Source: Eubacteriales bacterium | GTDB lineage: Bacteria; Bacillota; Clostridia; Oscillospirales; CAG-272 | Assembly: GCA_045605175.1 (NCBI GenBank) | Contig: JAZUPL010000013.1 | Location: 95-64,094 of the forward strand | Direction: 5' to 3' | Length of the DNA stretch: 64,000 nucleotides | Translations under genes and position numbers: made by a program | Shown: positions 14,396 through 40,139 of the stretch, piece after piece | Position numbering within the stretch: the stretch's first letter is position 1 | Layout: each line of letters starts with the position of its first letter | Notes under the pieces: generated by a model | What the model saw: only the letters and a program-made list of their open reading frames with translations | Told to the model about the DNA's origin: nothing | Database searches by the model: none

Positions 14396-14466
14396 TTTTT
14401 CTCCAAACCGTCTTTTTATTTAGCAAAAGCACAACATAGTATCTACATTGTGCTTTCCTTATTATA

Positions 14467-19618: not shown

Positions 19619-19750
19619 TTTTTGTTTCCTCCATAATATAAAATTTATTATTTGTTTTTTTATTTATTCCTGTTTTATCAAATACTGTGGAGGCTTACCC
19701 CGAAAAAATCCTCGGGAGTATGCTCTCCAAAAAGCACGCAACTATCAGGC

Positions 19751-21139: not shown

Positions 21140-21877
21140 TTTCTTGTCCTCTCTTAAAAGTATTTTTTATTTCTTATTCGCAAAATTCAAGATATTTTTG
21201 AAGAATAAAAGGCTAAATATTTAGTATATTAAACATCTTACAAAAATATTTAATTATATTATAGCAAATAAAGATGATAATTGTCAATAGTAAAATGTAT
21301 ATTAAATTAACAAAGATATAAAACCGCAAATAATCCAAAATAAAAATTTCATCGAAATGTAAATAATTGTTGTCTTTATACACCTTTTTGTCATTATTTT
21401 TATGCATAAATATCCAATTCTGACTGTATTTTCCTTATTATACTCAGTCTGTGTTTTCCCGCCTCGTTTTTTGAAAATCCTCTCCCCTTACGCTCTTTTC
21501 TTATAGCCAGTGCCACCCCGTGTTAAGTTTAAGTCTTTTTCTTCATCTTAAACCATAGGTTTCTTTAACGCCATATATAACTCCCCTCTATCGCAGATAA
21601 AAAAGGCAAACGCAAAGACAAAATCCTGCACGTCCGCCATTTTTTATTAAATTATCATATACTTAATTTACTTTGATATATTGATTTATTGTTTTATATA
21701 TGTTACAATTTTGTTAAAAGTGATATAAAAAAAGGTGCAACGAAAAGAACGGTAGAAACATTGTAAACACCACGGCGTTACACGCTATGCACTTATGAAC
21801 CACTACCACCACATATGTATAAAACCAGCCCTTAACACAATAGTTTATTTATAAATATTATATAAAAGAGGTAAAAT

Positions 21878-24115: not shown

Positions 24116-24187
24116 GCGATAAAAGCAAGGCGGCATTCCGCCCCGATATACAAATAAAATATACTCAAACTAAGTTAACATTAAAAA

Positions 24188-24245
24188 CCCCCTTAAAGTT
24201 AAGCCGTAAAACCTCACGGTCGACTCGCTTTAAGGGGGATTTTTT
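24188..24245. terminator. bidirectional terminator between convergent genes
   Basis: CCCCCTTAAAG ... CTTTAAGGGGG stem (29-nt loop with an inner stem), A-run before and TTTTTT after. Confidence 0.6.
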
Positions 24246-24289: not shown

Positions 24290-24706
24290 TTACAGAAGAT
24301 AGATTGGCAACTCGCCACCGATGTTTATATATCCCTCGCCACTGCGCATAGCGACGGTTTCTGCCACCTCGGTAGGTGTGGGAATGTCAGTATTTGACAC
24401 GGGGGTGGGCTTCTTAATGCTTTTCGTCCTCTTTTTCGGCGCGGGCTTAGGCTCGCTCTTTTTCTTTGGGGTAGTTGTTTTCTTTTGGCCAGTGGGAGCG
24501 TCTGCCTTTTTCTTCGGGGCGGTTTTTTTCTTTGTGGCAGGCTCTGTTGCTTTCTGCTCTGCCTCTACATCCGACACATCAACCACCACTACGGACAGGT
24601 CAATAGGCTCGACAATGCTACTGTTTTCCATATCGGGAGCAGAGGTGGTCACACGGCTATATCCGTTGTTTCTGACACGCTTTATAGAATCCTTACCTAA
24701 CGGCAT
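24290..24706 (-). CDS. lysine-rich intrinsically disordered protein, candidate ParA partner/adaptor
   Basis: 138 aa. AAGGAGA RBS 9 nt upstream; the start overlaps the ParA stop by 14 nt. Centre is KKKTAPKKKADAPTGQKKTTTPKKKSEPKPAPKKRTKSIKK. N-terminus is MPLGKDSIKRVR. Confidence 0.75.
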   Translation of the reverse strand: MPLGKDSIKRVRNNGYSRVTTSAPDMENSSIVEPIDLSVVVVDVSDVEAEQKATEPATKKKTAPKKKADAPTGQKKTTTPKKKSEPKPAPKKRTKSIKKPTPVSNTDIPTPTEVAETVAMRSGEGYINIGGELPIYLL

Positions 24707-25484
24707 ACTTCATAATCTCCTTTGCAAGTTTGACGTACTCAAGGGCAGAGCGACTGTATTTCTTGTAGGCGACGACGGGTTGACTGTTATCCTGTGCCCA
24801 CTCAACAGCGGCATCCACACGAATATAGGTGTCAAAGAGCCTTGCAATATCGCCCTCTTTCAAGGTTTGTATAGTCTGTTTGAAATAGTTCTTCCTCTCA
24901 TCCGCCTTGGTTATCGCAATACCCAGCACCTCAAGTTTTGGGGATATGTTACGCACCTGTGCAATAAAATCAAACATATTGGCAAGTCCAAAAAGTCCCC
25001 AGGGGCTTGCCTCAACAGGAATTACCACAAAATCCGAGGCACACATTATATTCATCACCCAGCCACCAAGCGTGGGGGGTGCATCTATCAGAACATAGTC
25101 GTAATATCCACGGGCAAGTATGGGGGATAGGCATTTTTTAAGTATCAACTCCCTTTGCCACTTGGAAAAGAGGTCAAACTCCACACCACTCATAAGCGAG
25201 GTGGAGGGGATAAGGTCAAGCCCTTGGTAGGGGGTTTCGACCACGTAGTCCGACAAATCCTTTTCGCCTTTTATCGCATTATATATATTCTTTTCGCCTG
25301 TGGCAAGAGCCATAGCCTCCTCCTCACCAAAGAAGGAAAGGGTGAGGTTCATCTGCATATCGCCGTCTATAAGCAATACACGTTTGCCAGCACGAGCCAT
25401 AGCACAACCCACGTTTGAAACAGTGGTGGTCTTTCCGCTACCGCCCTTGTTGTTGGCGAAAGAAATCACAATAGTTCTGCTCAT
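24693..25484 (-). CDS. ParA/Soj/MinD-family ATPase
   Basis: 263 aa. Deviant Walker A NNKGGSGKTT including the signature Lys, then LLIDGDMQMN. Start overlaps the pduV-like stop (ATGA). Confidence 0.92.
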   Translation of the reverse strand: MSRTIVISFANNKGGSGKTTTVSNVGCAMARAGKRVLLIDGDMQMNLTLSFFGEEEAMALATGEKNIYNAIKGEKDLSDYVVETPYQGLDLIPSTSLMSGVEFDLFSKWQRELILKKCLSPILARGYYDYVLIDAPPTLGGWVMNIMCASDFVVIPVEASPWGLFGLANMFDFIAQVRNISPKLEVLGIAITKADERKNYFKQTIQTLKEGDIARLFDTYIRVDAAVEWAQDNSQPVVAYKKYSRSALEYVKLAKEIMKYAVR

Positions 25485-25939
25485 TCTTTATTCTCACTTT
25501 CGGTTTGGTTTTCGTCCTCGTTTAGAAAATCTAAAATTGCCGACAGACCCTCGCCCGTCACGGCACTAACAGGGAAAATTCTTTTGCACCCTGCAAGGCG
25601 CAGCCACCTTTCGACTCGCTCAACGTTGGCGTCAGGTTTATCTATTCCCGAAATAATGCCTATAACCTCACGGTTTACAAGGCTGGTAATACATGGGGAA
25701 AATATTGAGTACGGCTCGTTTGCACTAAGCACCAAGCCCACCACGTCCGCCTCATACGCATATAGTGCCAAAGCACCGCTTGTCTGCCGCAGTTCGGTAT
25801 ATTCGCCGGGCGTATCAATAACGGTATCAAGATAGTTTATATACTGCGTTTTGAAATATTTAATCTCTTCGCCACGCAAAGCCTGTGTAAGAGTGGTCTT
25901 GCCTGCGGCGACTCGACCTATCAAAATTATCTTTTTCAT
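25481..25939 (-). CDS. pduV: EutP/PduV-family small GTPase
   Basis: Start set at MKKIILIGRVAAGKTTLTQAL (P-loop near the N-terminus, as in EutP/PduV). The ORF-track start 25984 would overlap the upstream shell gene. Confidence 0.85.
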   Translation of the reverse strand: MKKIILIGRVAAGKTTLTQALRGEEIKYFKTQYINYLDTVIDTPGEYTELRQTSGALALYAYEADVVGLVLSANEPYSIFSPCITSLVNREVIGIISGIDKPDANVERVERWLRLAGCKRIFPVSAVTGEGLSAILDFLNEDENQTESENKE

Positions 25940-25962
25940 CCTTGTCGCCTCGTTAGAGTATC

Positions 25963-26322
25963 TTATGTCCTCGTAATTTCGCAACAGGTGTAGCCGAGTT
26001 TGTTAATCACGTATGAACGAATAGCGGTAAATGCCGACTCGACTGCAGACACGCTGCCTGAAATTATAAGAGTTCCTGTAAATCTATCAACAAATCCCAC
26101 ATCGGCGCCCGAAGATTTAAGAGCGATATCTGCGGCGATAACCGCACTCTCGGCAGGGCTTATGGTAAGAACGCCTATGGCACTCTTCGTGTAATCCGTC
26201 CTCGGATCAAGTCCAAGTTTAACGTAAAGCACGTCATCGGGATTTGCAATAATATGACAGAGAGTCACCTGCTTACCCGGGACAAGTTCCTGCACTATTC
26301 TCATATTTTCTCTCAGTTCCAT
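25963..26322 (-). CDS. pduU: BMC shell protein, EutS/PduU type (permuted BMC domain)
   Basis: 119 aa. IGVLTISPAESAVIAADIALKSSGADVGFVDRFTGTLIISG pattern typical of EutS/PduU. Confidence 0.88.
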   Translation of the reverse strand: MELRENMRIVQELVPGKQVTLCHIIANPDDVLYVKLGLDPRTDYTKSAIGVLTISPAESAVIAADIALKSSGADVGFVDRFTGTLIISGSVSAVESAFTAIRSYVINKLGYTCCEITRT

Positions 26323-26373: not shown

Positions 26374-27159
26374 TTATCCACCTATCTGACATTTAAGTCC
26401 CGACTCCTCTGACACCGACAAAAGGTATTCCATTTTAGCACGGGTAGGGGGTTCTATATCAGGAAGCGAGTATTTTCTTCCAAGTCCCTCGTACTTATCT
26501 ATGCCGAGCCTGTGATAAGGCAAAAGGTGATGCTCTTCTACCGTACCAAGGCTTCGAGCAAACATGGAAATGGCGCGTATCTCCTCGGCAGTATCGTTAA
26601 AGGTGGGGATAACGGGCGTTCGAATTATAAGTTCTACGCCACTTTTTGCAAGAGTCCTCGCGTTTTCTAAAATTCGCTCGTTAGGCATACCCGTATATTC
26701 CTTGTGCTTTGCCGAGTCCATGTGCTTTATATCCATTAGAACAAGGTCAAGGTGTGGCAGGAGTTTTTCTATCTCGGCAAAAGGGAGCGATGCCGCCGTT
26801 TCTATTGCCGTGTGAAGTCCGTTTTCCTTTGCGGCTCTTAACAAATCTTTGGCAAAATCTGCCTGTGCAAGCACCTCGCCACCCGACAGGGTAAGTCCAC
26901 CGCCCGAACGGTCATAGTAAGGCATATCCGAGAGGATTTCGGGCATTATTTCGCCCACGGTGACATCTCTGCCCACCGTCTTCTGTTTTCCGCCCTCACT
27001 CATAACCTCTATTTCGTAGTTTTGGCTCTCAGGGTTACAGCACCAGGCGCATCGCATATAGCACCCTTTAAGGAACACTATGGTACGAATTCCCGGGCCA
27101 TCGTGAATAGAAAACCGCTGGATATTAAATATTCTGCCTTTGGTATCGTATATACTCAT
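26374..27159 (-). CDS. glycyl-radical enzyme activating protein (radical SAM, PflA-like, no ferredoxin insert)
   Basis: Start at ATG 27159 (MSIYDTKGRIFNIQRFSIHDGPGIRT) with a GAAAGGAAG RBS. CxxxCxxC motif as CYMRCAWC. The ORF-track extension to 27504 runs through non-coding repeats. Confidence 0.92.
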   Translation of the reverse strand: MSIYDTKGRIFNIQRFSIHDGPGIRTIVFLKGCYMRCAWCCNPESQNYEIEVMSEGGKQKTVGRDVTVGEIMPEILSDMPYYDRSGGGLTLSGGEVLAQADFAKDLLRAAKENGLHTAIETAASLPFAEIEKLLPHLDLVLMDIKHMDSAKHKEYTGMPNERILENARTLAKSGVELIIRTPVIPTFNDTAEEIRAISMFARSLGTVEEHHLLPYHRLGIDKYEGLGRKYSLPDIEPPTRAKMEYLLSVSEESGLKCQIGG

Positions 27160-27250
27160 AGTCTTCCTTTCTGTAAATTTGTGCCCTGCTTTTGGGACAA
27201 AATTATCTTCTATTTGCGGGCGAACACAGTTCGCCCCTACGTATTTTCCC

Positions 27251-27346
27251 CACGTTTGCGTAGCAAACATATCACGCCGAGTGAAGTGAGGTATATCACG
27301 TTTGCGTAGCAAACATATCACGCCGAGCACGGCGAGGCATATCACG
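27251..27346. repeat. 2 x 46-bp tandem repeat (plus partial third unit) in the GRE-activase spacer
   Basis: cacgtttgcgtagcaaacatatcacgccgag occurs at 27251 and 27297. Each has a GTTTGC-gta-GCAAAC hairpin. ATATCACG occurs 4 times at 22-24-bp spacing (27269, 27293, 27315, 27339). Confidence 0.85.
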
Positions 27347-27373
27347 CGTGTTCTCCGCAAGGGGACACGCCTT

Positions 27374-29917
27374 TTACCATCCCTGTTGGGTACGGTTAAT
27401 AATATCGTCCTGCAAGGACTTGGAAAGCGTGGTAAACAGTGCCGAATATCCTGCAACTCTAACGACGAGCGTCTTATAGTTTTCGGGGTGTGCCTGTGCG
27501 TCAAGGAGGGTTTCTCTTGTCACTACGTTAAACTGCATATGCATACCCTTTTGGTCGAAGTAGGAACGAATCAGGGCAACAAACTTGCATAATCCCGACA
27601 TTCCCTCAAGAGCCGAGGGGTGGAACTTCTGGTTTAAGAGAGTGCCGTTTGATGCTATTCCCTGCTCCAACTTTGCCACCGAGTTTGCAGTAGCGGTAGG
27701 GCCTTTTATATCTCTGCCCGAGGCAGGGCCTATGCCGTCTGCCAAGGGGGTGTATGCGAGTCTTCCGTCAGGGGTTGCGCCTGTTGTACCGCCAAGGGGT
27801 ACGTTTGCCGAAACCGGATAAAGTCCTGCCTGGAACATTCCTCCACGGACGTTCTTGTACTTTTCAACTTCCTTGGTGTAGGAGTTTGCCACGTCGCGCG
27901 CGAACATATCCACCTCGAAAATATCGTTGCCGTACTTGGGGCAGTCCTCGTCTATGGCGCGCTTGATTTCTCTGTACTTCGCCTTCTCTTCGGGGGTAAG
28001 GGATGAACAGGTGGTCACCTCACGGTAGATAAGTTCCACGGCTTCGGTGGTTATCTCAATACCCTCAAGAGCAAGTTCGGTTGCTATTTCAAGGGTGAGT
28101 TTTTCCGCTGCCGCGCCCGAAAGAGGATAGCCGAAGTTTGCCTTCATAGCCTCGCGGAAGTCTGTCAAGGTGTATCTCTTCTCGTCAAAAACGAGTTTCT
28201 TTATGGCAATAAGTCCGTCGGTGTTGTTTGCAATACCAAAGCCCTGCGGTCCTGTGAAGTTGTAGATTGCTCCACCCTCCTGCAAGGACTTTCCTCTGCC
28301 TATACAATCGTCAACCATACAGGACTGGAAGGGCAAGGGGCAACGCACCGCGTGGGCGGCATCTATTGCGTTGTTGGCGTTGACAAGCAGTTTTATCATA
28401 TACGCCTGCTGTGTCTTGTAGGCATTGTAGAATTGCTCAAAGGAGGTGATGTCCTCAACACGGGGGGTGTCAACACCTATCTTTATACCCTTGTCAACAC
28501 CTGCGTTAAAGGCGAGTTCCATCGGTCTGCACATATTGAAGAAGGCAGCATCGTGCCAACCGTCGGTCTTGTGGGGTGCTTGTGGCTCTACGCAACCGAT
28601 AATGCAGTAATCTCTGGCATCTTCGAGGGTGAGGCCTCTTGCCATAATCGAGGGAATTATAATTTCATCGTTGTAGTAAGCGGGCAAGCCTGTGCCAAGT
28701 CTTGTAAGTGCCGCCGCCTTGATAAGCAGGTCACGGGGCGAGCCATTCCATACTCTAATAGATATGGAGGGCTGGGGGAGCGGAACGTGCATAGCCGCTT
28801 CAAGGCACATATAAGAGAGGTCGTTGGTCGCATCAAGACCGCTTCTGTCCTGACCGCCGACAATGAGGTTCTGGAACATACCGTAGCCTGCAAAGCCGTC
28901 TGCCGAGCCTGCATCTCTTACCTTGTTTATATCGTTGAGTTTTACCCAGATGCAGTCGATAAGTTCCTGTGCCGACTCTCTGGTGATTATTCCACGGTCA
29001 AGGTCTGCCTTGTAATAGGGGTACATATACTGGTCGAAACGTCCGGGGGAAATAGAGTGTCCGCTGGACTCAACCTGAAGAAGAAGTTGTACAAACCAGA
29101 AGGACTGGCAGGCCTCCCAGAAGGAGGTAGCGCCAAACTCAGGCACTCTGGCGCAGTTTCTTGCTATTTTTTCAAGTTCGGCACGTCTTACGGGACATTT
29201 TTCGGTCTTTGCCGACTCTCTTGCAAGTCTTGAATATCTGCGCGCGTACTCGATAACGCCCTCGCAACTCTCAATAACTGCCCAGAGGAAGTTACTTCTC
29301 GCTATGTATTCGGGGTCTGAAACATCAAGGCTGTTAAGGGCGGCTTGAGCCTCGGATATGATACCGCGATAGCCCTTTGCCAAGACCTTGCCGTAGTCCA
29401 CGCACACGTGACCTATACCGTTATAGAAGTAGTTGCCGGGAGTAAACACCGAGTGCTTTGTAAAGGCGGCATAAGCCTCCGGCGACATATTCGAGCGCGC
29501 CAAATCCGAGCAGGTGCGTCCGTGCCAATAGGGATATACCTCACGGAGTTCCTTTTTTGTCTTTTCGCTGATATAGAAGGGGTCTGCCGCACGTGTTGCC
29601 ACAGTTTCAAACTCTGCTTCGAGCCACTCGTAGGAATACTCGGGGAACACCTGACATCCACGGGGTGAGGTCGTCGCACTTCCTACTATCAACTCGCCAT
29701 CCCTGATAACGATAGGAATGTTGCGAAGTATGTGAGCAAAGGCGGCACTACGACGTTTTATTATAGGCAAGTCCTCGGTAGCACGGTAACTTTCGGTAAC
29801 CAAAATTCCACGGCTGGACTCTATCTCGGGCATTTTCTCATAGAGATCTGCCACAAGTCTATCAATTCTTGAACTCTTATCTATTACGAATTTAATGCTT
29901 TCCATCTCTCTCTCCAA
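27374..29917 (-). CDS. glycyl radical enzyme, probable B12-independent 1,2-propanediol dehydratase (by locus context)
   Basis: 847 aa. C-terminal glycyl radical motif VRVAGYSALF and active-site GCVEP Cys/Glu loop. The substrate assignment is inferred only from the neighbouring aldolase, PduP and PduL genes. Confidence 0.95.
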   Translation of the reverse strand: MEREMESIKFVIDKSSRIDRLVADLYEKMPEIESSRGILVTESYRATEDLPIIKRRSAAFAHILRNIPIVIRDGELIVGSATTSPRGCQVFPEYSYEWLEAEFETVATRAADPFYISEKTKKELREVYPYWHGRTCSDLARSNMSPEAYAAFTKHSVFTPGNYFYNGIGHVCVDYGKVLAKGYRGIISEAQAALNSLDVSDPEYIARSNFLWAVIESCEGVIEYARRYSRLARESAKTEKCPVRRAELEKIARNCARVPEFGATSFWEACQSFWFVQLLLQVESSGHSISPGRFDQYMYPYYKADLDRGIITRESAQELIDCIWVKLNDINKVRDAGSADGFAGYGMFQNLIVGGQDRSGLDATNDLSYMCLEAAMHVPLPQPSISIRVWNGSPRDLLIKAAALTRLGTGLPAYYNDEIIIPSIMARGLTLEDARDYCIIGCVEPQAPHKTDGWHDAAFFNMCRPMELAFNAGVDKGIKIGVDTPRVEDITSFEQFYNAYKTQQAYMIKLLVNANNAIDAAHAVRCPLPFQSCMVDDCIGRGKSLQEGGAIYNFTGPQGFGIANNTDGLIAIKKLVFDEKRYTLTDFREAMKANFGYPLSGAAAEKLTLEIATELALEGIEITTEAVELIYREVTTCSSLTPEEKAKYREIKRAIDEDCPKYGNDIFEVDMFARDVANSYTKEVEKYKNVRGGMFQAGLYPVSANVPLGGTTGATPDGRLAYTPLADGIGPASGRDIKGPTATANSVAKLEQGIASNGTLLNQKFHPSALEGMSGLCKFVALIRSYFDQKGMHMQFNVVTRETLLDAQAHPENYKTLVVRVAGYSALFTTLSKSLQDDIINRTQQGW

Positions 29918-29929
29918 GCAATAAATTTA

Positions 29930-30475
29930 TTACATCTGACTCCACAAATCCTCGTGGGGTGCTGCGATAACCGAGGTGGCAGACAGGGATGCTACGCTCT
30001 TGGCATAGTCGCTCGCCGCCTCTACTGCCGCAGTAACGTCACCAATTTCGCCCGTCAACATCACAACGCCCTTGCCACCCATTCCTCGGGAAACGCGAAG
30101 GTCGTATATACTGACACGAGAGGTCTTTACTGCAATATCTGCGCACTTGATAGCGCTCGCCGCAGAGAAGGTTTCTACCAAGCCAAGCGCTCCGTCGGGC
30201 GTGGAAGTGCCGGTGCCAAAGAGCGCCTTTATAACCTGCTCGTCTATCCTACCCATAATCGACGAGTCGATAACGTAACCGTCAAAACGAGTCACCACGT
30301 GATTTACTGCCGCAGTTATATTGGATATTGAGCCACTTAATATTATCTCGTATTTTCCGGGGCAGGAGGGGTGTGCCGAAACCATTTCTACTCCTGCACT
30401 TTTGAGTGCCGCATCGGCCGCCTCCACTCCCTTGGGAATACATTTTAATTCAATTACTCCAATAGCCTTATACAT
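29930..30475 (-). CDS. pduT: tandem-domain BMC shell protein (BMC-T, PduT-like)
   Basis: 181 aa with two BMC domains. SCPGKY Cys lies at the position of the PduT pore Fe-S ligand. Confidence 0.85.
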   Translation of the reverse strand: MYKAIGVIELKCIPKGVEAADAALKSAGVEMVSAHPSCPGKYEIILSGSISNITAAVNHVVTRFDGYVIDSSIMGRIDEQVIKALFGTGTSTPDGALGLVETFSAASAIKCADIAVKTSRVSIYDLRVSRGMGGKGVVMLTGEIGDVTAAVEAASDYAKSVASLSATSVIAAPHEDLWSQM

Positions 30476-30490
30476 CTTAAACCTCTATCA

Positions 30491-31807
30491 TCACTTCTTA
30501 TCTATTCTGATACTGTCCCTCTGTACGCTTACAACGCCGTCAATAGATGCCGCAATGCTCACGGAAAGCCCCTCGCCGTACTTTGCGACGATATCTCCGC
30601 GAGTGACAACCTGTCCGTCCGAAACCACGGGGACTGCGGGCGCTCCGATAATTCTACCGAGAGGTATTTCCACACGGTCAAACTCCATTTGTCCTAAATA
30701 TTCAGGGACTCTATCATAATTTCTCACACCAAGGGCAGATGACCATTTTTCGGAGGGTATCATTCTGTACTCCCTCTCCGCTCTGACCTGTACGTCCTCG
30801 GTGGCTATATATTTCATCTTATTTTTTGCAAGCAACGCCTTGTAACCGCTTATGACCGCCTTTGGCGATATTCCCTGGCTGCAAGCAAGACTCTCGCAAA
30901 TTCCGCATCCGCAACAGAGCGTAGCAGAAATAACAAGACTTGGCTCTGCCTTTACAGCACCCATAGCAGTTCTTACCATTTTGTGTGGCTCAAGCGGATA
31001 ACCAAGAAGCGCACGCGGACACATATCGGTGCATCGGGTGCATTGACAACAAGCGGTTTCGGCTCTGGTTATTGCCACTCGCTCGTTAAGTCTTTTTGCC
31101 TCTATTGCTCTCGTTTCGGTGGGCAAAACATTTATCGCTTTGGTGGTCTTTGTGACAACTGCGGTGTTGGGGTTTATAAGTTTACCCATAGATGGGCCGC
31201 CGTCAAGCACGCTGTGAGTGGGCGGGACTGTTATACCGAGGGCGGCAAGAATATCCTGCACTCTCGTTCCGACAGGGACTCTCACTACTGCGTGGCGCTC
31301 TACGTCACCGCCGACGGTGAGCCACTTTTCCCATACACGCTCGCCAAATTTGACAGCACGACCAAGGTTATACATAGTTTCCACATTATCAACTATAACC
31401 GCGGCGGTTATCGGGAGATTTCCCGGCTTCACTATCCTGCCCGTAGCCTGATAAATAATACTAATCTCGTCGCCTATCGGATAGACGTCGGGGAGAACCT
31501 TTACATATATTCCCGCATCAAGCGCCTGTCCGTCCTCAAAGGAAAGACGCTCGGCGGTGTGTCGCTTTACGCACAGGAGCGCTCGGGGAATATGGCAATA
31601 TGCCATAACCTCGGATATACCCGCCAAAATGAGGGGCAACTCCCGTCCCATAAGCACGTAGTCGGTATATAAGAGTGGCTCGCACTCGGCGCCGTTCACC
31701 ACCAGGGTGTCAGCCCCGTCGGCAAGTTTGGCATATGAGGGAAAACCCGCTCCACCGGCACCAACAATACCCGACTCCTTCATTAGTTTTTTAAGATCCA
31801 TAAGCAC
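30491..31807 (-). CDS. pduS: PduS/RnfC-like flavoprotein with two 4Fe-4S motifs
   Basis: 438 aa. GAGGAGFP nucleotide-binding motif, NGAECEP, CCQCTRCTDMCP and CCGCGICESLAC clusters. Confidence 0.85.
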   Translation of the reverse strand: MLMDLKKLMKESGIVGAGGAGFPSYAKLADGADTLVVNGAECEPLLYTDYVLMGRELPLILAGISEVMAYCHIPRALLCVKRHTAERLSFEDGQALDAGIYVKVLPDVYPIGDEISIIYQATGRIVKPGNLPITAAVIVDNVETMYNLGRAVKFGERVWEKWLTVGGDVERHAVVRVPVGTRVQDILAALGITVPPTHSVLDGGPSMGKLINPNTAVVTKTTKAINVLPTETRAIEAKRLNERVAITRAETACCQCTRCTDMCPRALLGYPLEPHKMVRTAMGAVKAEPSLVISATLCCGCGICESLACSQGISPKAVISGYKALLAKNKMKYIATEDVQVRAEREYRMIPSEKWSSALGVRNYDRVPEYLGQMEFDRVEIPLGRIIGAPAVPVVSDGQVVTRGDIVAKYGEGLSVSIAASIDGVVSVQRDSIRIDKK

Positions 31808-31836
31808 CTCACTCCCTGCCGAGGGAGAAAATCATT

Positions 31837-32085
31837 TTAATCTACTATACCTACTATAACAGCATCTGCGGGGGCAGAGGTGTTACCCAGTGCAAGACGA
31901 GCCGACGAGCCGGTAGTGATAAGCACTATCCCGCCAATACCTGCACCTACCGAATCAATTGCCACTATGTAATCGTCGGTAAGCACTCCGTTTTTCATAA
32001 GTTGAACTTCCATAAACTTTGAGCCGACAAGAGCCGCCTGCTTTTTGGTTGACACTATGTGTCCTTTAATCATTCCTCTTAACAT
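31837..32085 (-). CDS. pduN: BMC vertex pentamer protein (EutN/PduN/CcmL family)
   Basis: 82 aa. MIKGHIVSTKK...AIDSVGAGIGGIVLITTGSSAR pattern. Confidence 0.9.
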   Translation of the reverse strand: MLRGMIKGHIVSTKKQAALVGSKFMEVQLMKNGVLTDDYIVAIDSVGAGIGGIVLITTGSSARLALGNTSAPADAVIVGIVD

Positions 32086-32098
32086 ATCTATCTCCTCT

Positions 32099-32761
32099 TT
32101 ATTCTTTTACAATCTTAACACGGCAGCCGTTGCCTATGCCGGTAGCATTTGCATCGTCGGTATCCACGTGCATCTCAAGACGGAAGTCCTTGTGGACTCT
32201 TACCTGTACGTCGTACCATCTGGTCCTGCGAGTGCCCTCGACATCTACCGTGACGTAGTCGCCGTCCTTAACACCAAAGCGCACACCGTCCTGTGGGGAC
32301 ATATGTATATGCCTGTTTGCTATGATACAACCCTCGCCGAGTGTGACAACACCCTTTGGGCCTATAATCGTGATAGGGGAAGAGCCTGCTATCCTGCCCG
32401 ATTCTCTTACAGGGGGCTTGACTTTAAGCGTATAGGAATCGGTCTTGGATATTTCCACCTGCGACTCCCTTCTGACAGGCCCTAAAACTCTTACGTTTTC
32501 GATAGGGCGCAGCGACGGACCTATAATAGTCAAGGTTTCCTTGCAGGCATACTGCCCCGGCTGGCTTAACTCCTTCATAGGAGTAAGTTCATACCCTGCG
32601 CCAAAGAGGGTTTCGAGGTCTTTTTTTGACAGGTGTATATGTCTGTTTGACACACCCACAGGCACAGTGCCTTCCTCGTTGGCGGTTATAGGTTTTGATG
32701 TGTCCATACCCGCTATAACTCTTTTTACTATTTCCGCTATTTTATCGTTTAGATTTTCCAT
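32099..32761 (-). CDS. pduL: phosphate propanoyltransferase PduL
   Basis: Start at ATG 32761 (MENLNDKIAEIVKRVIAG, RBS GGAAG). Duplicated PduL motifs VSNRHIHLS and ANRHIHMS. Confidence 0.9.
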   Translation of the reverse strand: MENLNDKIAEIVKRVIAGMDTSKPITANEEGTVPVGVSNRHIHLSKKDLETLFGAGYELTPMKELSQPGQYACKETLTIIGPSLRPIENVRVLGPVRRESQVEISKTDSYTLKVKPPVRESGRIAGSSPITIIGPKGVVTLGEGCIIANRHIHMSPQDGVRFGVKDGDYVTVDVEGTRRTRWYDVQVRVHKDFRLEMHVDTDDANATGIGNGCRVKIVKE

Positions 32762-32883
32762 AGCCGCTTCCTTTCGTCTTGATAAATCCTTTGTATTGAA
32801 GAAAGGCTTAAAAAATTCAAGCCCTTTTTCAATACCCAAAGGCACGAGGCCTTTGGATATTGTGTCGATAACTAAACCTTCTA

Positions 32884-33156
32884 TTACTTAATAGAGGGGA
32901 GAAGTTTCTCAACGTCTGCGTGGGGACGGGGAATAACGTGAGTAGCGATAACCTCACCAAGAGAGGTTGCCGCAGCAGAGCCTGCCTCAACAGCCGCCTT
33001 AACTGCACCGACATCGCCACGAACCATAACGCTTACAAGTCCGCTGCCGATTTTCTCGGAGCCGATAAGCACAACATTTGCAGCCTTTACCATTGCATCT
33101 GCAGCCTCGATAGCGGCTACAAGACCTCTGGTCTCTACCATTCCAAGTGCTTCCAT
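32884..33156 (-). CDS. BMC-H hexamer shell protein (PduA/EutM type)
   Basis: 90 aa. [28 protein letters not shown]... Near-identical paralog of 33586..33861. Confidence 0.93.
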
Positions 33157-33290
33157 TGTGTTTTCCTCCTATAAAAATATTTTTAATAACAAATCTATAT
33201 TTTCAGCATAAGCCAAAAACCTTCTTTAAGATGAATGACGCAGCACGGGGTTGCCCTCGCCACAGTGAGCAACACCATGGCGAAGAAATA

Positions 33291-33563
33291 TCAGCCCGTC
33301 GTCAAAAACGCCATTACATCGGGGTGAGGGCGTGCGATTACCTCGCAGCACTTCACCTTGCCGACCTCGGCAGCGGCCGCAGCACCCGCATCAAGCGCCG
33401 CCTTTACGGCAGAGACCTCGCCCTCGACAACAACCGTGACGAGTCTGCCTCCAAGACGCTTCTCGACGTGGATAAGTTTGACGTCGGCCGCCTTTACCAT
33501 AGCGTCGAGGCCTGTTATTGCGGCGACCATCGCCTGCACTTCAAGCAACGCTATTGCCTTCAT
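33291..33563 (-). CDS. BMC-H hexamer shell protein (divergent paralog)
   Basis: 90 aa. IALLEVQAMVAAITGLDAMVKAADVKL. Single BMC domain. Confidence 0.9.
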   Translation of the reverse strand: MKAIALLEVQAMVAAITGLDAMVKAADVKLIHVEKRLGGRLVTVVVEGEVSAVKAALDAGAAAAAEVGKVKCCEVIARPHPDVMAFLTTG

Positions 33564-33585
33564 TTGTCAAGCCGCCCTTCCTGAA

Positions 33586-33861
33586 TTACTTAATAACAGG
33601 AAGAAGTTTCTCAACGTCCGCATGAGGACGAGGAATAACGTGAGTAGCGATAACCTCACCAAGAGAGTGAGCAGCGGCAGAACCTGCCTCAACTGCTGCC
33701 TTTACCGCGCCAACGTCACCACGAACCATAACGCTTACAAGTCCGCTGCCGATTTTCTCGGAGCCGATAAGTACAACGTTTGCAGCCTTTACCATTGCAT
33801 CTGCAGCCTCAATAGCGGCTACAAGACCTCTGGTTTCTACCATTCCAAGTGCTTCCATCAT
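33586..33861 (-). CDS. BMC-H hexamer shell protein (PduA/EutM type)
   Basis: 91 aa. [29 protein letters not shown]... Confidence 0.93.
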
Positions 33862-33918
33862 TTTTTGTTTCTCCTTTTAAGTGTTTTTTATTTTCATTTA
33901 ATCTTGTTGCTTAAATAA

Positions 33919-34236
33919 TTACCTGAGTTTGTCCTTGCCGAGTGCAGAAAGACGGGCGAACCACTCTATTTCATCGCTCTGTCTTGCGATGACCTTGTGA
34001 GTTATGTAAAGTTCTCTCTTGTCTGCCTCCATCTTGCCCGCAGCGATAGCCGCCTCAACAGCAGCCGCCGAGCCCTCAACCTTTATGGCCATCACCAGAG
34101 GTACTCTGGCAGAGTCACCTGCGGCAGGCTTGTTCTTGTCTATGGCAACGACCTTTACGTCCGCCGCCTTTGCCATGGCATCTGCCACGACTATCGCGGT
34201 CGCAAAGCCGAAAACCTCTATCATTCCAAGTGCCAT
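33919..34236 (-). CDS. BMC-H shell protein with C-terminal extension
   Basis: 105 aa. MALGMIEVFGFATAIVVADAMAKAADVKVV BMC domain. Confidence 0.85.
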   Translation of the reverse strand: MALGMIEVFGFATAIVVADAMAKAADVKVVAIDKNKPAAGDSARVPLVMAIKVEGSAAAVEAAIAAGKMEADKRELYITHKVIARQSDEIEWFARLSALGKDKLR

Positions 34237-34246
34237 AGGCTACTCC

Positions 34247-35443
34247 TTATTCTGCTACGTAGCAGATCTTAATTCCCTGCTGGGAAACGTTGACCTCCAT
34301 AGCCTCATTGAGTTTGTCGAGGGGGAACTGGTGGGTGATAAGTTCCTTTATCGGAATTTTCATCTCCCTTGCCTGGCGAAGGAATGCCATGGTGGTGGGA
34401 TAGTCGTCTGCGCTGTAATCCCAAGAGCCGACGATGGTTATTTCCTTGTTGCACATTGCGAAGTGGGGGTTTACCGAATATTCTCCGTTGTTTACGAAGA
34501 AGCCCATTTCACACATACCGCCGCCTCGACGAATGTACTCGTAGATATCCTTTGCCGCCGCGGGAGCGCCTGTACACTGGAAGGCAAAGTCAACACCTAC
34601 GCCGTTGCAGATACCCTTAACGAGAGCAACTCTCTCTTCAAGCGAGGCAATTTCCTTGAAACTTATTACGGTTTTAGCACCAAGTTTCTTCGCCATATCA
34701 AGACGCTTGGGAGTGCCGTCGATAGCCACGATATGATTTACGCCTGCGGCACGAAGTACCGAAATCATAACCAGACCGACAGGGCCAAGTCCTTGAACGA
34801 GAACCTTGGAGTTGAAGTTTATAAGACCTGTGGAGTTTGCCCTCTTGAGCGCGTGAACGCACACACAAGCAAGTTCGAGGAGCATTCTCTCCTTAAGGTC
34901 AAGGTCGTTTACTACAAAGTAGGTCGAGCCCTTTCCTCTGATAAGCAGGTAGTCAGAGAACCAACCTGTCAGGGGTTGAGCGTCGCTGTGGGGGATAAGA
35001 CCAAACACGCCCTGCTTGTCGCAAAGGTTGGTGTTGGCGGGTTGGTTGCGACAGACGTAGCACTCGCCACAACTGATAACACTGGTGACTATCTTGTCGC
35101 CAACCTTGATAGGCTTGCCCGAGGTGTCCGCCTTGATGTTCTTTCCGAGATAAACTATCTCGCCCGTGCCCTCGTGACCGAGAGTAACGGGAATAATGCC
35201 AAAGGGATCTGCCCGCCACTCGTGAACGTCGGTACCGCACACACCGCAACCCTCTACACGGACGAGAATATCGTCATCGGTAAGGGCGGGGACGGGAAAC
35301 TCTTTGACCTCTATCTTCTTCTGTCCTGTAAGCATCGCAACTCTTGCGGTCTTGGGAATAGCGCCACTCTTCTGAACAGGGCCACCAATCTCACCGAGAA
35401 TCTTACGAACGATGCTCTCTACCTGAGATGAACTGAAATTCAT
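34247..35443 (-). CDS. zinc-dependent (MDR-family) alcohol dehydrogenase with N-terminal encapsulation-peptide-like helix
   Basis: Start at ATG 35443 (AAGGAAAGGA RBS). MNFSSSQVESIVRKILGEIGG, then GVCGTDVHEW, GHEGTGEIV and CGECYVCR zinc motifs. Confidence 0.9.
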   Translation of the reverse strand: MNFSSSQVESIVRKILGEIGGPVQKSGAIPKTARVAMLTGQKKIEVKEFPVPALTDDDILVRVEGCGVCGTDVHEWRADPFGIIPVTLGHEGTGEIVYLGKNIKADTSGKPIKVGDKIVTSVISCGECYVCRNQPANTNLCDKQGVFGLIPHSDAQPLTGWFSDYLLIRGKGSTYFVVNDLDLKERMLLELACVCVHALKRANSTGLINFNSKVLVQGLGPVGLVMISVLRAAGVNHIVAIDGTPKRLDMAKKLGAKTVISFKEIASLEERVALVKGICNGVGVDFAFQCTGAPAAAKDIYEYIRRGGGMCEMGFFVNNGEYSVNPHFAMCNKEITIVGSWDYSADDYPTTMAFLRQAREMKIPIKELITHQFPLDKLNEAMEVNVSQQGIKICYVAE

Positions 35444-35462
35444 TTTTCTATCCTTTCCTTGA

Positions 35463-36929
35463 TTAAATAATACGGAAACTTTCTGCAAGAACGCATCTGC
35501 GAAGTCTGGTAAAACTCTTCGCGCTGGTGATGCCCTCACCGGTAGGTCCTGCTATGGTGAAGGTGGTGTGTCCCTCGCCACCAAAGCCGATACCCGCATA
35601 AGAGGGTGCGTTCTTTACGAAAATCGTGGTCTCCACCGCCCTTGCAAAGCGGGTGAGGTTGTCTATGTTCTTCGAGTGCATATGTGCGGTGTGACGGTTA
35701 CCGTGCTCCGCCTTTACTGCAAGGTCAATAGCCTCGTCGATGTCGTTAACCCTTACTATCGGAAGTATGGGCATCATCAATTCGTGCTGTACGAAGGGGT
35801 GTCCAAAGTCGGTTTCGCAAATAATGCAACGGACCTCGTCCCCTACGTGAATTCCAACCTTTTCAAGAATAACCTTTGCATCTCTTCCAACACAATCACG
35901 GTTTACTATTTTAGAAACCACGCCTGTCTTTGGATTTTTCTTGTCAACGAGGACAATATCTGCAAGTCTGTCGGCGGTCGCTCTGTCAATTTTGTAAGCA
36001 CCAGCCTCTATCATCGAACTAATAAGTTCGTCGGCGATATTCTTAAAGGCAAACACCTCTTTCTCGGCAATACAAGGCAGGTTGTTGTCAAAGGTACAAC
36101 CGTCGATAATGTCCTTGCCCGCCTTTCTTACGTCTGCGGTATCATCTACTATTACAGGGGGGTTGCCCGCACCTGCACCGATAGCCTTCTTTCCGCTTGA
36201 CAGCACCGCCCTTACAACACCGGGGCCGCCTGTGCAAACGAGCAGTTTGATTACAGGGTGCTTATACATCACGTCAGCGCTCTCAAGCGTGGGCTTTACC
36301 ACCGAGGCAACAAGCACACGGGGGCCGCCTGCCAAGGCACTTGCACGGTTGATAAGGTCAACCGCATAGTTTGAGGTTGCGATAGCACCGGGGTGAGGGT
36401 TAAACACAACGCCGTTGCCCGCTGCTATCATTCCGATACTGTTACAAATAACCGTTTCGGAGGGGTTGGTACTTGGGGTAATACTACCGACTACTCCAAA
36501 GGGAGCCATTTCGGTAAGCGTAAGTCCGTAGTCGCCGGTCTTTGCCTGGGATATTATGTCCGAGGTGCCGGGAGTCTTGTCTGCGACGAGAATATGCTTT
36601 GCCGTCTTGTGATCTACCCTGCCCATTTTCGTTTCGGCAACGCCGAGAGCCGCCATAATAGGCGCTTCCTTGCGAGTGAGGTCACGGATAACCGCGATTA
36701 CCTTCTCCCTCTCGTCAAGCGACATAGCACGAATAGCCTTGTAGCCGGCGGTTGCCGCCTCAATAGCGTCATTCATATCCTCATAAACACCGATAAATCT
36801 GCGACCACAATAGCCTGTGGAATCCCACTGACAAGCCGTTGTCTTTTTTTCGGTGGTCTGTGTACCAAGACTGCGAAGAACCGATGCAACTACCTCTTCA
36901 ATTTGAGCCTCTGTCCAATTTATAGCCAT
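35463..36929 (-). CDS. pduP: CoA-acylating aldehyde dehydrogenase (PduP/EutE family)
   Basis: 488 aa. N-terminal amphipathic helix TEAQIEEVVASVLRSL. Aldehyde dehydrogenase core with catalytic Cys region FDNNLPCIAEKE. Confidence 0.92.
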   Translation of the reverse strand: MAINWTEAQIEEVVASVLRSLGTQTTEKKTTACQWDSTGYCGRRFIGVYEDMNDAIEAATAGYKAIRAMSLDEREKVIAVIRDLTRKEAPIMAALGVAETKMGRVDHKTAKHILVADKTPGTSDIISQAKTGDYGLTLTEMAPFGVVGSITPSTNPSETVICNSIGMIAAGNGVVFNPHPGAIATSNYAVDLINRASALAGGPRVLVASVVKPTLESADVMYKHPVIKLLVCTGGPGVVRAVLSSGKKAIGAGAGNPPVIVDDTADVRKAGKDIIDGCTFDNNLPCIAEKEVFAFKNIADELISSMIEAGAYKIDRATADRLADIVLVDKKNPKTGVVSKIVNRDCVGRDAKVILEKVGIHVGDEVRCIICETDFGHPFVQHELMMPILPIVRVNDIDEAIDLAVKAEHGNRHTAHMHSKNIDNLTRFARAVETTIFVKNAPSYAGIGFGGEGHTTFTIAGPTGEGITSAKSFTRLRRCVLAESFRII

Positions 36930-36956
36930 CTTTCTTCTCCTATCTTAAGAGGGGGA

Positions 36957-37703
36957 TTATTTGCCGAGTGCCTCAAGCACCTTTCTGGTGATAGCGGCAA
37001 CAACGTCCTCGCTTATCTCACTCTTAGGCTCTTCGGCATAGTCGATGCCGGGGTGACGACCGGGAATGTTCATCTTCTTTCTGAGTTCCATAAGTTTTTT
37101 AAGTTCTGCGTTGGGAATCTCGTGAACTGCACCAAGTTCCATAGCATTTTTGCAAATCTTTGCATTGAACTCAACCTCTTCCATAATGAAGAGCGCCTTG
37201 GTAAGGTCGCAACCTACGGTCAGAGCACCGTGGTTCTGAAGAAGGAACGCATCGTGGTTCTGGATATAGGGTTCAAGAGAGTCGGGAATCTCCATAGTCG
37301 AGGGAGTTCCGTACGCACAGGTGGGAACTTCACCGATGGTGAGAACCGCCTCGGGGAGAATGTACTGGTCAAGGTCAACGCCTGCAACCGTGAATGCGGT
37401 AGCAATCGGGGGATGAGCGTGAACTACTGCAAATACGTCAGGACGCTCCTGGTAAACTCTCATGTGCATCTTGATCTCAGAGGAGGGGTTGAGTTTGCCC
37501 TCAAGTTTGTTACCAAAACGGTCAACCTTGATAATCATATCAGGGGTAAGAACTCTTTTGGATACACCTGTGGGGGTGCAGTAGAATTCGTTGTCGGACA
37601 CCTTTACCGAGATGTTACCGTCGTTTGCAGCAACGAAGCCGAGTTGATAAAGAATGTGACCTGCTTCGCAGATTTCCTTCTTAATTTCATAAACAGATTT
37701 CAT
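36957..37703 (-). CDS. class II aldolase (fuculose/rhamnulose-1-phosphate aldolase family) with C-terminal extension
   Basis: 248 aa. NDGNISV, VVHAHPPIATAF and QNHGALTVG motifs. About 35 extra C-terminal residues end in an amphipathic helix, SEDVVAAITRKVLEALGK. Confidence 0.9.
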   Translation of the reverse strand: MKSVYEIKKEICEAGHILYQLGFVAANDGNISVKVSDNEFYCTPTGVSKRVLTPDMIIKVDRFGNKLEGKLNPSSEIKMHMRVYQERPDVFAVVHAHPPIATAFTVAGVDLDQYILPEAVLTIGEVPTCAYGTPSTMEIPDSLEPYIQNHDAFLLQNHGALTVGCDLTKALFIMEEVEFNAKICKNAMELGAVHEIPNAELKKLMELRKKMNIPGRHPGIDYAEEPKSEISEDVVAAITRKVLEALGK

Positions 37704-37730
37704 TTTTTTCTTCCTTTCAGAATATATAAA

Positions 37731-38924
37731 TTATTTATTAGCCAAAGCAAGTGTGTCAAGAGCAATCATATATTCCTCGTTTGTAGGAATAACGAAGGTT
37801 CTGACGGTTGCGCCCTCTGCGGTGAGTTCTACAATCTCGCCCGAGGGGCAGGTCATATTAAGTTCCTCGTCTATCTTGATACCGAGATAGGACATATCAC
37901 GGCAGACGTTTTGACGAAGGACTCTGTCATTCTCGCCTATTCCCGCGGTGAACACGAGCACATCTACTCCGTTCATCTCGGCAACATACGAGCCTATAAT
38001 TTTCTTGATATTGTGGGTGAGTATTTTAAGTGCCAGAGCAGCACGGGCGTTGCCGGCATTTGCTGCGGCGGTGATGTCACGGCAGTCGCTGGATACACCC
38101 GACACACCGAGAAGTCCCGACTTTGAATTAAGGAGTTTTTCTACCTCCTCGGCACTAATACCCTCCTTTTTCATTATATAGGGGGCAACGGTGGGGTCAA
38201 TAGCGCCGCTTCTTGTTCCCATAGGCACGCCGTCCTGGGGAGTGAAGCCCATCGAGGTGTCAACCGCTCTGCCGTCAACGGTGGCAGTTATAGAAGAACC
38301 GTTACCAAGGTGGCAGGTGATAACCTTTGCCTGCTTGTCGCCTACTATCTCGGTCGCCTTGCCACAGACGAATCTGTGAGAGGTGCCGTGGAAGCCGTAA
38401 CGGCGAATCTTGTACTTTTCATAGAGTTCGTAGGGAATGGGATAAATGTATGCGTGCACCTCCATACCCGAATAGTAAGAGGTGTCAAACACGCCAACGT
38501 GAGGCACGTCAGGCATTACACTTCTGCAAGCCTTAAATCCGCTTATTGCAGGCGGGCCGTGCAGGGGGTTAATCTCGACTATACTCTCAAGGTATTTAAG
38601 TTCTTCCTCACCAAGAAGCGAGGATCTGCGCAATTTCTCGCCACCGTGAGCAAATCTGTGTCCAACCGCGCCAATCTCATCAACGCTCGAAATAACTCCG
38701 AGTTCTTTGTCGGTAAGAAGCGAGAGAACCAACTCAATGGCCGCCTTATGATCGACCATTTCCACCTCGGCAGAATAGGTTTCTTTGCCGGGACGTTTGT
38801 GGGTAACAGCACCGCCGATGCCAATTCTCTCGCACAGTCCCTTTGCGATTACCTCGCCGGTTTCCATGTCGAAGAGTTGGTATTTAAGCGAGGAACTACC
38901 CGCGTTAACAACAAGGATCTTCAT
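37731..38924 (-). CDS. ackA: acetate/propionate kinase
   Basis: 397 aa. MKILVVNAGSSSLKYQLF and HRFVHGG-like GHRFAHGG motifs. Confidence 0.93.
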   Translation of the reverse strand: MKILVVNAGSSSLKYQLFDMETGEVIAKGLCERIGIGGAVTHKRPGKETYSAEVEMVDHKAAIELVLSLLTDKELGVISSVDEIGAVGHRFAHGGEKLRRSSLLGEEELKYLESIVEINPLHGPPAISGFKACRSVMPDVPHVGVFDTSYYSGMEVHAYIYPIPYELYEKYKIRRYGFHGTSHRFVCGKATEIVGDKQAKVITCHLGNGSSITATVDGRAVDTSMGFTPQDGVPMGTRSGAIDPTVAPYIMKKEGISAEEVEKLLNSKSGLLGVSGVSSDCRDITAAANAGNARAALALKILTHNIKKIIGSYVAEMNGVDVLVFTAGIGENDRVLRQNVCRDMSYLGIKIDEELNMTCPSGEIVELTAEGATVRTFVIPTNEEYMIALDTLALANK

Positions 38925-39116
38925 TTTCTTCTCCTTAAATATATTTTCTTTTTTATTTGATTTTGTAATAACTAACTTATATCAAGTATCCCTCTCTATA
39001 TTTCAAGAGTTGGTTTTAGGGCCACAGAAAGCCTTTTTCTACAAAGGTGTTTAAGAATTTGAAGCCATCCTTCAAGACTTCCTTTTCTCTGTTTTCCAAA
39101 AGCCCCTCCCTTTGTT

Positions 39117-39956: not shown

Positions 39957-40139
39957 TAACCTGCCTCCTTTCTCTGTTTGTTTTATGGCAAAAGACACGG
40001 GCTGTGCAATCTGCCTACAAGCGTTTTTGCAAGTAGTCATTTGTATAGAGTAGTCTATATAGTAGTGCGCTATACAGTAGGCGCATATAAGGCTAACATT
40101 CCCCGCCCTTTTGCCATTGTTGAGTTGTTTTTCAGGGTT

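Follow-up and report, generated by a model that had tools for sequence, protein, structure and literature searches.

A candidate McdAB-like positioning pair at the end of a GRM5-like microcompartment operon in gut Clostridia

Two overlapping genes close a bacterial microcompartment (BMC) operon in a 64,000-nucleotide (nt) stretch of contig JAZUPL010000013.1, assembly GCA_045605175.1 of an Eubacteriales bacterium; this whole stretch is referred to below as the window. The first gene encodes a ParA-type ATPase of 263 amino acids (24693..25484, minus strand, ATG start). The second encodes a small lysine-rich protein of 138 amino acids (24290..24706, minus strand, ATG start), here termed the adaptor after its putative role. 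We consider it fairly probable that the pair is an McdAB-type two-component positioning system for a microcompartment of the GRM5-like type, one of the glycyl radical enzyme microcompartments (GRMs), which processes fucose and rhamnose. This assignment draws on the strict linkage of both genes to one kind of microcompartment locus across species, on the intact motifs of the ATPase, and on the modular, apparently disordered structure of the adaptor.

Gene organization and linkage to microcompartment loci

The pair is translationally coupled to the operon. A first-pass annotation of the window had located a ParA ATPase and a 138-residue gene 3' of pduU- and pduV-like genes, joined by overlaps of 4 and 14 nt, and these coordinates are exact. 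As read from the sequence, the stop codon of pduV and the start codon of the ParA gene share 4 nt (ATGA), and the ParA and adaptor genes share 14 nt. The Shine-Dalgarno sequence of the adaptor gene (AAGGAG, 24717..24722, minus strand) lies 10 nt upstream of its ATG, within ParA codons K255-E256. A terminator-like bidirectional hairpin is present at 24183..24243 (no strand assigned), between the adaptor gene and a convergent gene for a leucine-rich-repeat (LRR) protein. It is an inverted repeat with 16-nt arms that are 94% complementary, a 29-nt loop, and flanking A- and T-runs. The 3' end of the operon is placed there on the basis of this hairpin, and the only terminator found in the operon's end region is the one 3' of the adaptor gene.

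Judged by its relatives, the small open reading frame (ORF) is a real gene and not a chance ORF, since homologues are numerous and both termini are conserved across a linker of variable length. A first protein search returned 32 homologues. A profile search with the small protein then gave 278 clusters at 50% identity, of which 242 fell below 1e-10, and a scan of GTDB species representatives (one genome per species) located relatives in 134. All carriers are uncultured gut Clostridia, labelled as Eubacteriales, Candidatus Scatosoma, Oscillospiraceae or Christensenellaceae, and their hosts include humans, ruminants, deer, rabbit and chicken.

Comparison of the window's operon proteins with 87 related loci revealed that the pair is strictly linked to one variant of the GRM5-like locus, which is marked by an RpiR regulator and an acetate kinase. 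The ParA gene stands directly upstream of the small gene in every locus (87/87), and the two overlap by 14 nt in 73 loci and by 26 nt in 10. The AAGGAG sequence is found 10 nt before the small gene's ATG in 60/60 distinct upstream sequences. PduV and PduU are encoded in every locus whose upstream sequence exceeds 1.5 kb (76/76), and the glycyl radical enzyme in every locus where it exceeds 6.5 kb (62/62). Three look-ups that started from ParA homologues led to the same BMC context. Downstream neighbours vary among the loci and include ribosomal genes, a phosphoglucomutase fusion, a peptidase and an ABC transporter; hence, the pair belongs to the operon and not to its neighbours. Four loci (L040, L078, L074 and L084) carry an additional 0.6-1.3 kb between pduV and parA, so the PduV-ParA junction is not always tight. 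The inserts of L040 (1159-2310) and L078 (8357-9103) contain an ORF of 250-383 amino acids without obvious relation to BMCs.

These observations make it highly improbable that the pair is an ordinary chromosome or plasmid partition module, in which a ParA and a centromere-binding protein merely lie beside a BMC operon. The ATPase is indeed most similar to chromosomal Soj/ParA proteins, and thousands of plasmids encode ParAs at <40% identity. The expected companions are nevertheless missing from the DNA searched. An ORF scan, confined to about 40 ORFs of at least 140 amino acids, covered 39 long ORFs outside the pair; none is a ParB, replication or plasmid gene, and all were assigned to the BMC operon or to chromosomal housekeeping. 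Family searches at the pair showed no helix-turn-helix (HTH) or ribbon-helix-helix protein. The first-pass annotation had likewise described the neighbourhood as free of ParB, plasmid and replication genes. A search for the parS consensus that tolerated up to three mismatches gave 0 matches in the whole window against 1.9 expected. A repeat scan detected no iterons, only an in-frame duplication in the adaptor's linker and the terminator. Rfam and tRNA scans of the window gave no match.

The wider genomic evidence points the same way. The pair overlaps genes of the operon, and elsewhere the window consists of chromosomal housekeeping DNA, with genes for pyrimidine synthesis, aconitase/IDH, PFK, holA, IMPDH and asnA. 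Linkage to the GRM locus is complete (100%) across species, while the downstream flanks change. A plasmid origin was considered and rejected, given that none of 72,556 plasmid records contains the small protein and that the best plasmid ParA match is <40% identical to the GRM ParA. Occurrence of the pair away from BMC loci, which the first-pass annotation had named as a finding that would refute its reading, was thus seen neither in the related loci nor among the plasmids.

Structure of the ATPase and the adaptor

The ATPase has the sequence features of a bona fide member of the ParA/MinD superfamily. It matches the Pfam families AAA_31 (8e-52) and CbiA (3e-20). The deviant Walker A motif NNKGGSGKTT spans residues 11-20, with the signature lysine at K13, and the Walker A' (D40/D42) and Walker B (D134) residues are present. 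A catalytically active ATPase is expected because 80 family members all retain K13, K18 and the acidic Walker residues. In the same set, R197 and K198 are invariant and K202 is lysine or arginine. Across the related loci, ParA identity is 65-95%.

By sequence comparison, the enzyme is best classified as a small Soj-like ParA. The closest solved relatives are chromosomal ParA/Soj proteins, namely 8ray (4e-32), HpSoj 6iub (4e-29) and TtSoj 1wcv (8e-27). The Soj alignment spans residues 6-259 of 263 and leaves neither an N-terminal HTH extension nor a C-terminal membrane-targeting helix of the MinD type; because the alignment reaches residue 259, a MinD-type extension is excluded. In addition, the NCBIfam minD models score far under their cut-offs on this protein, which places it outside MinD.

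The adaptor looks like a disordered protein with linear motifs. It has no Pfam match at E<=0.01, only a low-complexity NCBIfam match at 0.04, and only K/A/P-rich noise (E 6-7) in a profile search of PDB sequences. AlphaFold2, run with the family alignment, returned two short helices only, at a mean predicted local distance difference test (pLDDT) score of 59 and a predicted template modelling (pTM) score of 0.14. The earlier description of a 138-residue protein without recognisable fold therefore agrees with the family searches and with the model. The peptides quoted with it are also present: NNKGGSGKTT in the ATPase and, in the small protein, MPLGKDSIKRVR and a K/P/T tract. The protein starts with MPLGKDSIKRVR, holds the K/P/T-rich tract, and ends ...GGELPIYLL. 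Residue counts for the adaptor refer to 82 distinct family sequences. These range from 72 to 203 amino acids in length, and 80/82 have an isoelectric point of 9.2-10.2. Each comprises three parts: an N-terminal module, a variable linker and a conserved C-terminal motif.

The N-terminal module (codons 1-29; 24620..24706, minus strand) is near-invariant, with the consensus M-P-[I/L]-G-K-N-[A/S]-I-K-R-V-x-N-N-G-Y-S-x-V-x-T-x-A-P-D-M-E-N-S. Invariant positions are G4, R10, N13, G15, Y16, A23, P24, D25, M26, N28 and S29; K5, I8 and K9 are near-invariant, and K18 and K20 are common. The adaptor thus has the charged basic N-terminus, a putative contact with the ATPase, by which McdB-like adaptors are recognised (PMC8359340).

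The linker (codons 30-122; 24341..24619, minus strand) is variable and rich in K, A, P, E and T. It measures 27-158 amino acids across the family, contains 23% K, 18% A, 11% P and 9% E, and carries a net positive charge in 81/82 adaptors. Disorder and a biased low-complexity composition, the second hallmark of McdB-like adaptors, are therefore also found. The first-pass annotation had noted an acidic patch; it is present at residues 30-55, although it is kept in close relatives only, whereas the basic composition of the linker is a family-wide feature. A 48-nt in-frame direct repeat occurs in the linker (24458-24492 and 24506-24540, 80% identity; peptides KKKTAPKKKADAPTGQ and KKTTTPKKKSEPKPAP), which suggests that the linker grows by duplication.

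The C-terminal motif (codons 123-138; 24293..24340, minus strand) is conserved and reads G-x-x-x-[V/I]-x-x-G-x-[E/D]-[M/L]-P-[Y/I/V]-[Y/H/W]-L-L-COOH. Counted from the end, P(-5), L(-2) and L(-1) never vary. At position -3, 67 sequences carry Y, 12 carry H, 2 carry W and 1 carries F, so that an aromatic residue (Y, W or F) occupies it in 70/82; the adaptor of the window has Tyr there. Y or F is found at position -4 in 53/82, and an acidic residue (E or D) stands at -7 in 65/82. The invariant C-terminal Trp that strictly defines carboxysomal McdB is not a feature of this family. Present, on the other hand, is the published signature for non-carboxysome relatives, in which a Tyr or Phe is conserved among the final four to five residues and has an acidic residue no more than five positions away (PMC8359340; PMC11321042). 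The first-pass annotation had argued that the missing tryptophan marks a distinct adaptor type. The residue is indeed Tyr and not Trp, but the P-x-[Y/H/W]-L-L tail, which the annotation had missed, fits the published McdB-like class.

Proposed mechanism and competing explanations

In the proposed mechanism, the ParA-type ATPase would dimerise on ATP and coat a cellular surface, most likely the nucleoid. The adaptor would dock on the shell exterior via its C-terminal [M/L]-P-x-[Y/H/W]-L-L-COOH, and its flexible polycationic linker would let it reach outward. Its basic N-terminal peptide (K5, I8, K9, R10) would then bind ParA and stimulate ATP hydrolysis, whereupon ParA would be released. Depletion of ParA around each compartment would set up a Brownian ratchet toward higher ParA and drive the compartments apart, as is the case for carboxysomes. 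The outcome would be that aggregation is prevented and that both daughter cells inherit compartments. We infer three elements of this scheme: which end of the adaptor binds which partner, the nucleoid as matrix, and the positioning phenotype itself.

ParA partners stimulate their ATPases via Lys and Arg residues at the extreme N-terminus. In the structure of HpParA with DNA and ParB(1-10), the peptide MAKNKVLGRG sits beside the dimer interface, its key residues are K5, L7 and R9, and R9 stacks on Phe52 of ParA loop L23 (PMC11229316). The first ten residues of the adaptor, MPIGKNAIKR, offer K5, I8 and K9/R10 in parallel with K5, L7 and R9 of HpParB. On the other side of the putative interface, the GRM ParA has an invariant F52 in an acidic FGEEE loop, which in the HMMER alignment falls at the place of HpParA Phe52, one residue off. 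By analogy, the adaptor's N-terminus would bind and activate ParA.

A second analogy concerns the opposite end. McdB needs its invariant Trp to bind carboxysomes, and for the H. neapolitanus protein, in which the Trp is third from the end, the C-terminal motif also suffices. Tyr can substitute for the Trp partly or fully, and acidic residues lie within five positions (PMC11321042). The adaptor tail has the same geometry, with an aromatic residue third from the end and an acidic residue upstream, and may dock on the shell in a similar manner.

A comparable tail occurs on a second protein of the operon. In 19 of about 76 related loci (L038, L040, L045, L046, L049, L051, L052, L056, L062, L065-L067, L070, L071, L076, L080-L082, L086), PduV has a K-rich disordered C-terminal extension of 30-70 amino acids that ends in TWLL or TYLL. 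The ending is [D/Q/A/P/E]-T-W-L-L-COOH in 18 loci and T-Y-L-L in L049. For comparison, [YWF]LL endings are found in ~0.25% of antisense ORFs of the same DNA. Other loci have K-rich PduV tails without the aromatic-LL ending (e.g. L001, L048, L055, L064, L078), and the window's own PduV has a short acidic tail only.

Since two different nucleoside triphosphatase (NTPase) systems of one operon share a polycationic linker and an aromatic-LL-COOH ending, the tail is most simply explained as docking on the shell. Alternatively, it may bind ParA. A broader proposal, which we advance tentatively and hold to be possible but on the doubtful side, is that the polycationic linker with aromatic-Leu-Leu-COOH is a general outer-surface docking signal for the metabolosome. 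It would be used by PduV in fused form in many species and by ParA through the adaptor, whose 29-residue N-terminal module would recruit and activate the ATPase. Under the same proposal, the pair would be the first example of a ParA-based partition machine that is dedicated to a catabolic microcompartment, and would have arisen independently of McdAB from a Soj-like ATPase. If true, the aromatic-LL tail would serve as a portable tag by which proteins could be attached to the outside of BMCs, which would be useful in engineering.

The matrix is a further point to consider. The HpSoj-DNA structure defines a basic patch of K199, K227, K230 and K247; its equivalents in BsSoj are R189, K201, R215 and R218, of which R189 and R218 are needed for DNA binding (PMC6393308). 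BsSoj R189 corresponds to the invariant R197 of the GRM ParA, and HpSoj K199 to K202, which is K or R. Further conserved basic residues lie near the patch, namely R/K222, K241, K242 and R245. Nucleoid binding by the ATPase is therefore plausible on sequence grounds. The nucleoid is rated as a likely matrix and not as a demonstrated one because the DNA patch is only partly conserved.

Several points weigh against positioning by an McdAB-type mechanism. The Soj DNA-binding patch appears only partly kept in the GRM ParA: HpSoj K227 aligns with the non-basic S/A225, HpSoj K230 (BsSoj R218) with an invariant Glu, E228, and HpSoj K247 with the non-basic Y/T/N243. In the tail, 12/82 adaptors have His at -3 and thus no aromatic residue there. 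Homology of either protein to McdA or McdB was not demonstrable by the comparisons made. Every carrier is uncultured, and a literature search found no experiment on a native ParA system at a metabolosome. Finally, Pdu compartments of Salmonella are positioned independently of ParA, MinD and heterologous McdAB (PMC12866334). As a result, ParA-based positioning is not general for metabolosomes.

The partial patch lends some support to a different arrangement, in which the polycationic linker of the adaptor would itself bind DNA while ParA would control attachment or release, without a gradient of DNA-bound ParA. We regard such a direct nucleoid tether as quite unlikely. The linker is net positive in 81/82 sequences and contains 23% Lys, PduV also has K-rich tails in many relatives, and the DNA-binding patch of ParA is partly substituted, with an invariant Glu at the BsSoj R218 position. 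However, R197, K198, K202, K241, K242 and R245 remain conserved as basic residues on the face that binds DNA in Soj. The linker is also free to vary between 27 and 158 amino acids, as is typical for a spacer, and no known ParA system works in this way.

It is likewise unlikely that the pair serves assembly, with the lysine-rich protein nucleating or gluing shell and cargo (e.g. as a condensate) and the ATPase acting as an assembly or quality-control factor without matrix transport. The adaptor would suit such a role, being disordered and polycationic like known BMC scaffolds, and McdB proteins themselves form condensates (PMC11321042). The incomplete canonical Soj patch would be accommodated, and strict operon linkage suits any BMC-dedicated function. 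What speaks against a scaffold is that the adaptor gene closes the operon in translational coupling with ParA and that the adaptor's first ten residues mimic a ParB-type ParA-activation peptide. Moreover, Gly and Pro in the C-terminal motif mean that it is not an amphipathic helical encapsulation peptide. Classical GRM5 loci have been described without ParA among their common accessory genes (PMC4207490), so the pair is not a core assembly factor. McdAB-type positioning remains the reading that we favour. The first-pass annotation had proposed a dedicated McdAB-like pair for the microcompartment; every test run on synteny and motifs agrees with this, and the positioning function itself stays a prediction.

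Known systems, locus context and significance

To our knowledge, McdAB of carboxysomes is the only worked-out BMC positioning system. It is known in an alpha type (H. neapolitanus) and in beta types 1 and 2 (cyanobacteria), and there, likewise, a ParA-type gene is followed by a small partner in or next to the BMC operon. The adaptor resembles McdB in its charged N-terminus, intrinsic disorder, biased composition, and C-terminal aromatic residue within the last four positions. The GRM ParA keeps the signature Walker A lysine, as do alpha and beta type 2 McdA. The cargo differs, being a catabolic glycyl-radical metabolosome of anaerobic gut Clostridia and not a carboxysome. In contrast to McdB, the adaptor has Tyr or His as its characteristic residue (Trp in 2/82), set in a fixed P-x-aromatic-L-L motif; its N-terminal module is a near-invariant block of 29 amino acids, longer than a simple charged peptide; and it has no coiled coil or Gln-rich region.

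Orthology of the GRM ParA to McdA is not demonstrable from the sequences compared. The McdA-like protein of Cyanothece whose structure is solved (6NON/6NOO) gives a match of 6e-15 that is limited to residues 4-180, in contrast to 4e-29 to 4e-32 over the full length for Soj/ParA; on the McdA side, the comparison covered this one protein, a plasmid-type, type-1-like and atypical relative. Since Soj is closer than the solved Cyanothece protein, the pair is probably McdAB-like through independent recruitment of a Soj-like ATPase. As far as sequence can tell, it carries every operational feature published for McdAB-like (non-carboxysome) systems.

The closest solved counterpart in ATPase fold and sequence is Soj/ParA with its Spo0J/ParB peptide (4e-29 to 4e-32), as captured for H. 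pylori ParA and ParB N10 (PDB 8JMJ-8JML). The adaptor has Lys5, a hydrophobic residue and Arg9/10 as in MAKNKVLGRG, and F52 of the GRM ParA provides the aromatic residue of the arginine-clamping loop. In contrast to ParABS, the adaptor has no HTH or CTPase ParB domains, and the window has no parS. Of the four positions of the Soj DNA patch, two have non-basic residues in the GRM ParA and one has an invariant Glu. The pair would, in addition, be dedicated to a protein organelle and not to DNA.

The PduV/EutP GTPase offers another comparison. It has been proposed to distribute Pdu compartments, a positioning role that one review attributes to a single study (PMC8262871). Its gene is adjacent upstream in the same operon as the ParA pair, and in the 19 loci above it has the same linker-plus-aromatic-LL design as the adaptor. 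It differs in having a Ras-like NTPase fold and in carrying the tail fused, not on a separate adaptor.

The concept of McdAB-like systems at metabolosomes is an already published prediction. In 2014, ParA (PF01656) already figured among the Pfam families given as accessory to BMC loci (PMC4207490). MacCready 2021 described four non-carboxysome loci that contain McdA- and McdB-like genes, with Tyr in place of Trp within the last four residues (PMC8359340), and a 2021 mBio review restated the presence of McdAB-like genes at non-carboxysome BMC loci (PMC8262871). Basalla 2024 named PDU and GRM loci and specified Tyr or Phe within the last five residues (PMC11321042), and a 2025 review notes that mcdAB-like genes are "occasionally" near other BMC operons. 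The first-pass annotation had presented the extension of the principle to metabolosomes as new; it had been proposed in print from 2021 to 2025. The published PDU and GRM genes, as described in these reports, share both concept and signature with the present pair, and from the described signature it is likely that they belong to the same family. These reports give a handful of examples as described; the family delimited here covers 134 species and 278 clusters, with defined motifs, strict GRM5-like synteny and the PduV tail.

The two genes upstream of the pair encode PduV and PduU. The small GTPase of the PduV/EutP family (25481..25984, minus strand) is supported by Pfam PduV-EutP (2e-50) and NCBIfam TIGR02528 (6e-43), and its true start is probably the ATG at M16 (MKKIILIG). 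The PduU-like BMC shell protein (25963..26322, minus strand; Pfam BMC 1e-11) is 72-97% identical and syntenic in related loci. The remaining GRM5-like operon extends over 26374..40040 on the minus strand, was assigned with Pfam, and has the same gene order in related loci. From the 5' end, it encodes an RpiR regulator, acetate kinase, class II aldolase, aldehyde dehydrogenase, Zn-alcohol dehydrogenase and four BMC-H proteins. These are followed by PduL, BMC-P (ORF at 31837-32085, minus strand), a PduS-like flavoprotein, BMC-T, the glycyl radical enzyme and its activase; the genes for PduU, PduV, ParA and the adaptor come next and complete the operon.

GRM5 is the microcompartment type that converts fucose and rhamnose to 1,2-propanediol (PMC6325248). 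All genes that define it under the criteria of that study are present on the minus strand at 26374-38924 (PMC6325248). The locus also encodes a regulator of the RpiR family (HTH_6 plus SIS; 39117-40040) and an acetate kinase (37731-38924). The 2014 description of GRM5 names a regulator of the DeoR family (PMC4207490) and, for Ruminococcus, Roseburia and C. phytofermentans, lists no ParA (PMC4207490). The locus with RpiR and acetate kinase is a variant of GRM5.

The ORF of the enzyme that activates the glycyl radical enzyme (26374-27504) encodes 376 amino acids from a TTG and overlaps the gene of its substrate enzyme by 131 nt. Its true start is probably ~115 codons downstream of this TTG because relatives encode 260-261 amino acids.

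Beyond the operon, seven genes encode BspA-type leucine-rich-repeat (LRR_5) proteins (7435-15426 and 22355-24115). Six form a tandem minus-strand array and the seventh is convergent to the end of the BMC operon. Between them, a minus-strand cluster at 15466-21139 encodes a transglutaminase-like protein, a PP2C phosphatase that includes a long coiled coil, a protein with a VWA domain and a Ser/Thr protein kinase, and may be a signalling module. The ~1.2 kb between the kinase and LRR genes (21140-22354) contains no ORF of more than 103 amino acids, no Rfam match and no tRNA.

The contribution of this analysis is to delimit the family, to link it to the GRM5-like variant, and to define motifs for both ends of the adaptor. 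Also new are the parallel with the N-terminal peptide of ParB, the caveat concerning the DNA patch, and the aromatic-LL tail shared with PduV in related loci. Its value is tempered by the earlier prediction of the idea and by the uncultured state of all carriers. The family nonetheless provides a clean, abundant and strictly BMC-linked candidate for metabolosome spacing and inheritance in fucose- and rhamnose-degrading gut Clostridia, and the sharp peptide motifs at both ends of the adaptor make the positioning hypothesis directly testable by reconstitution.

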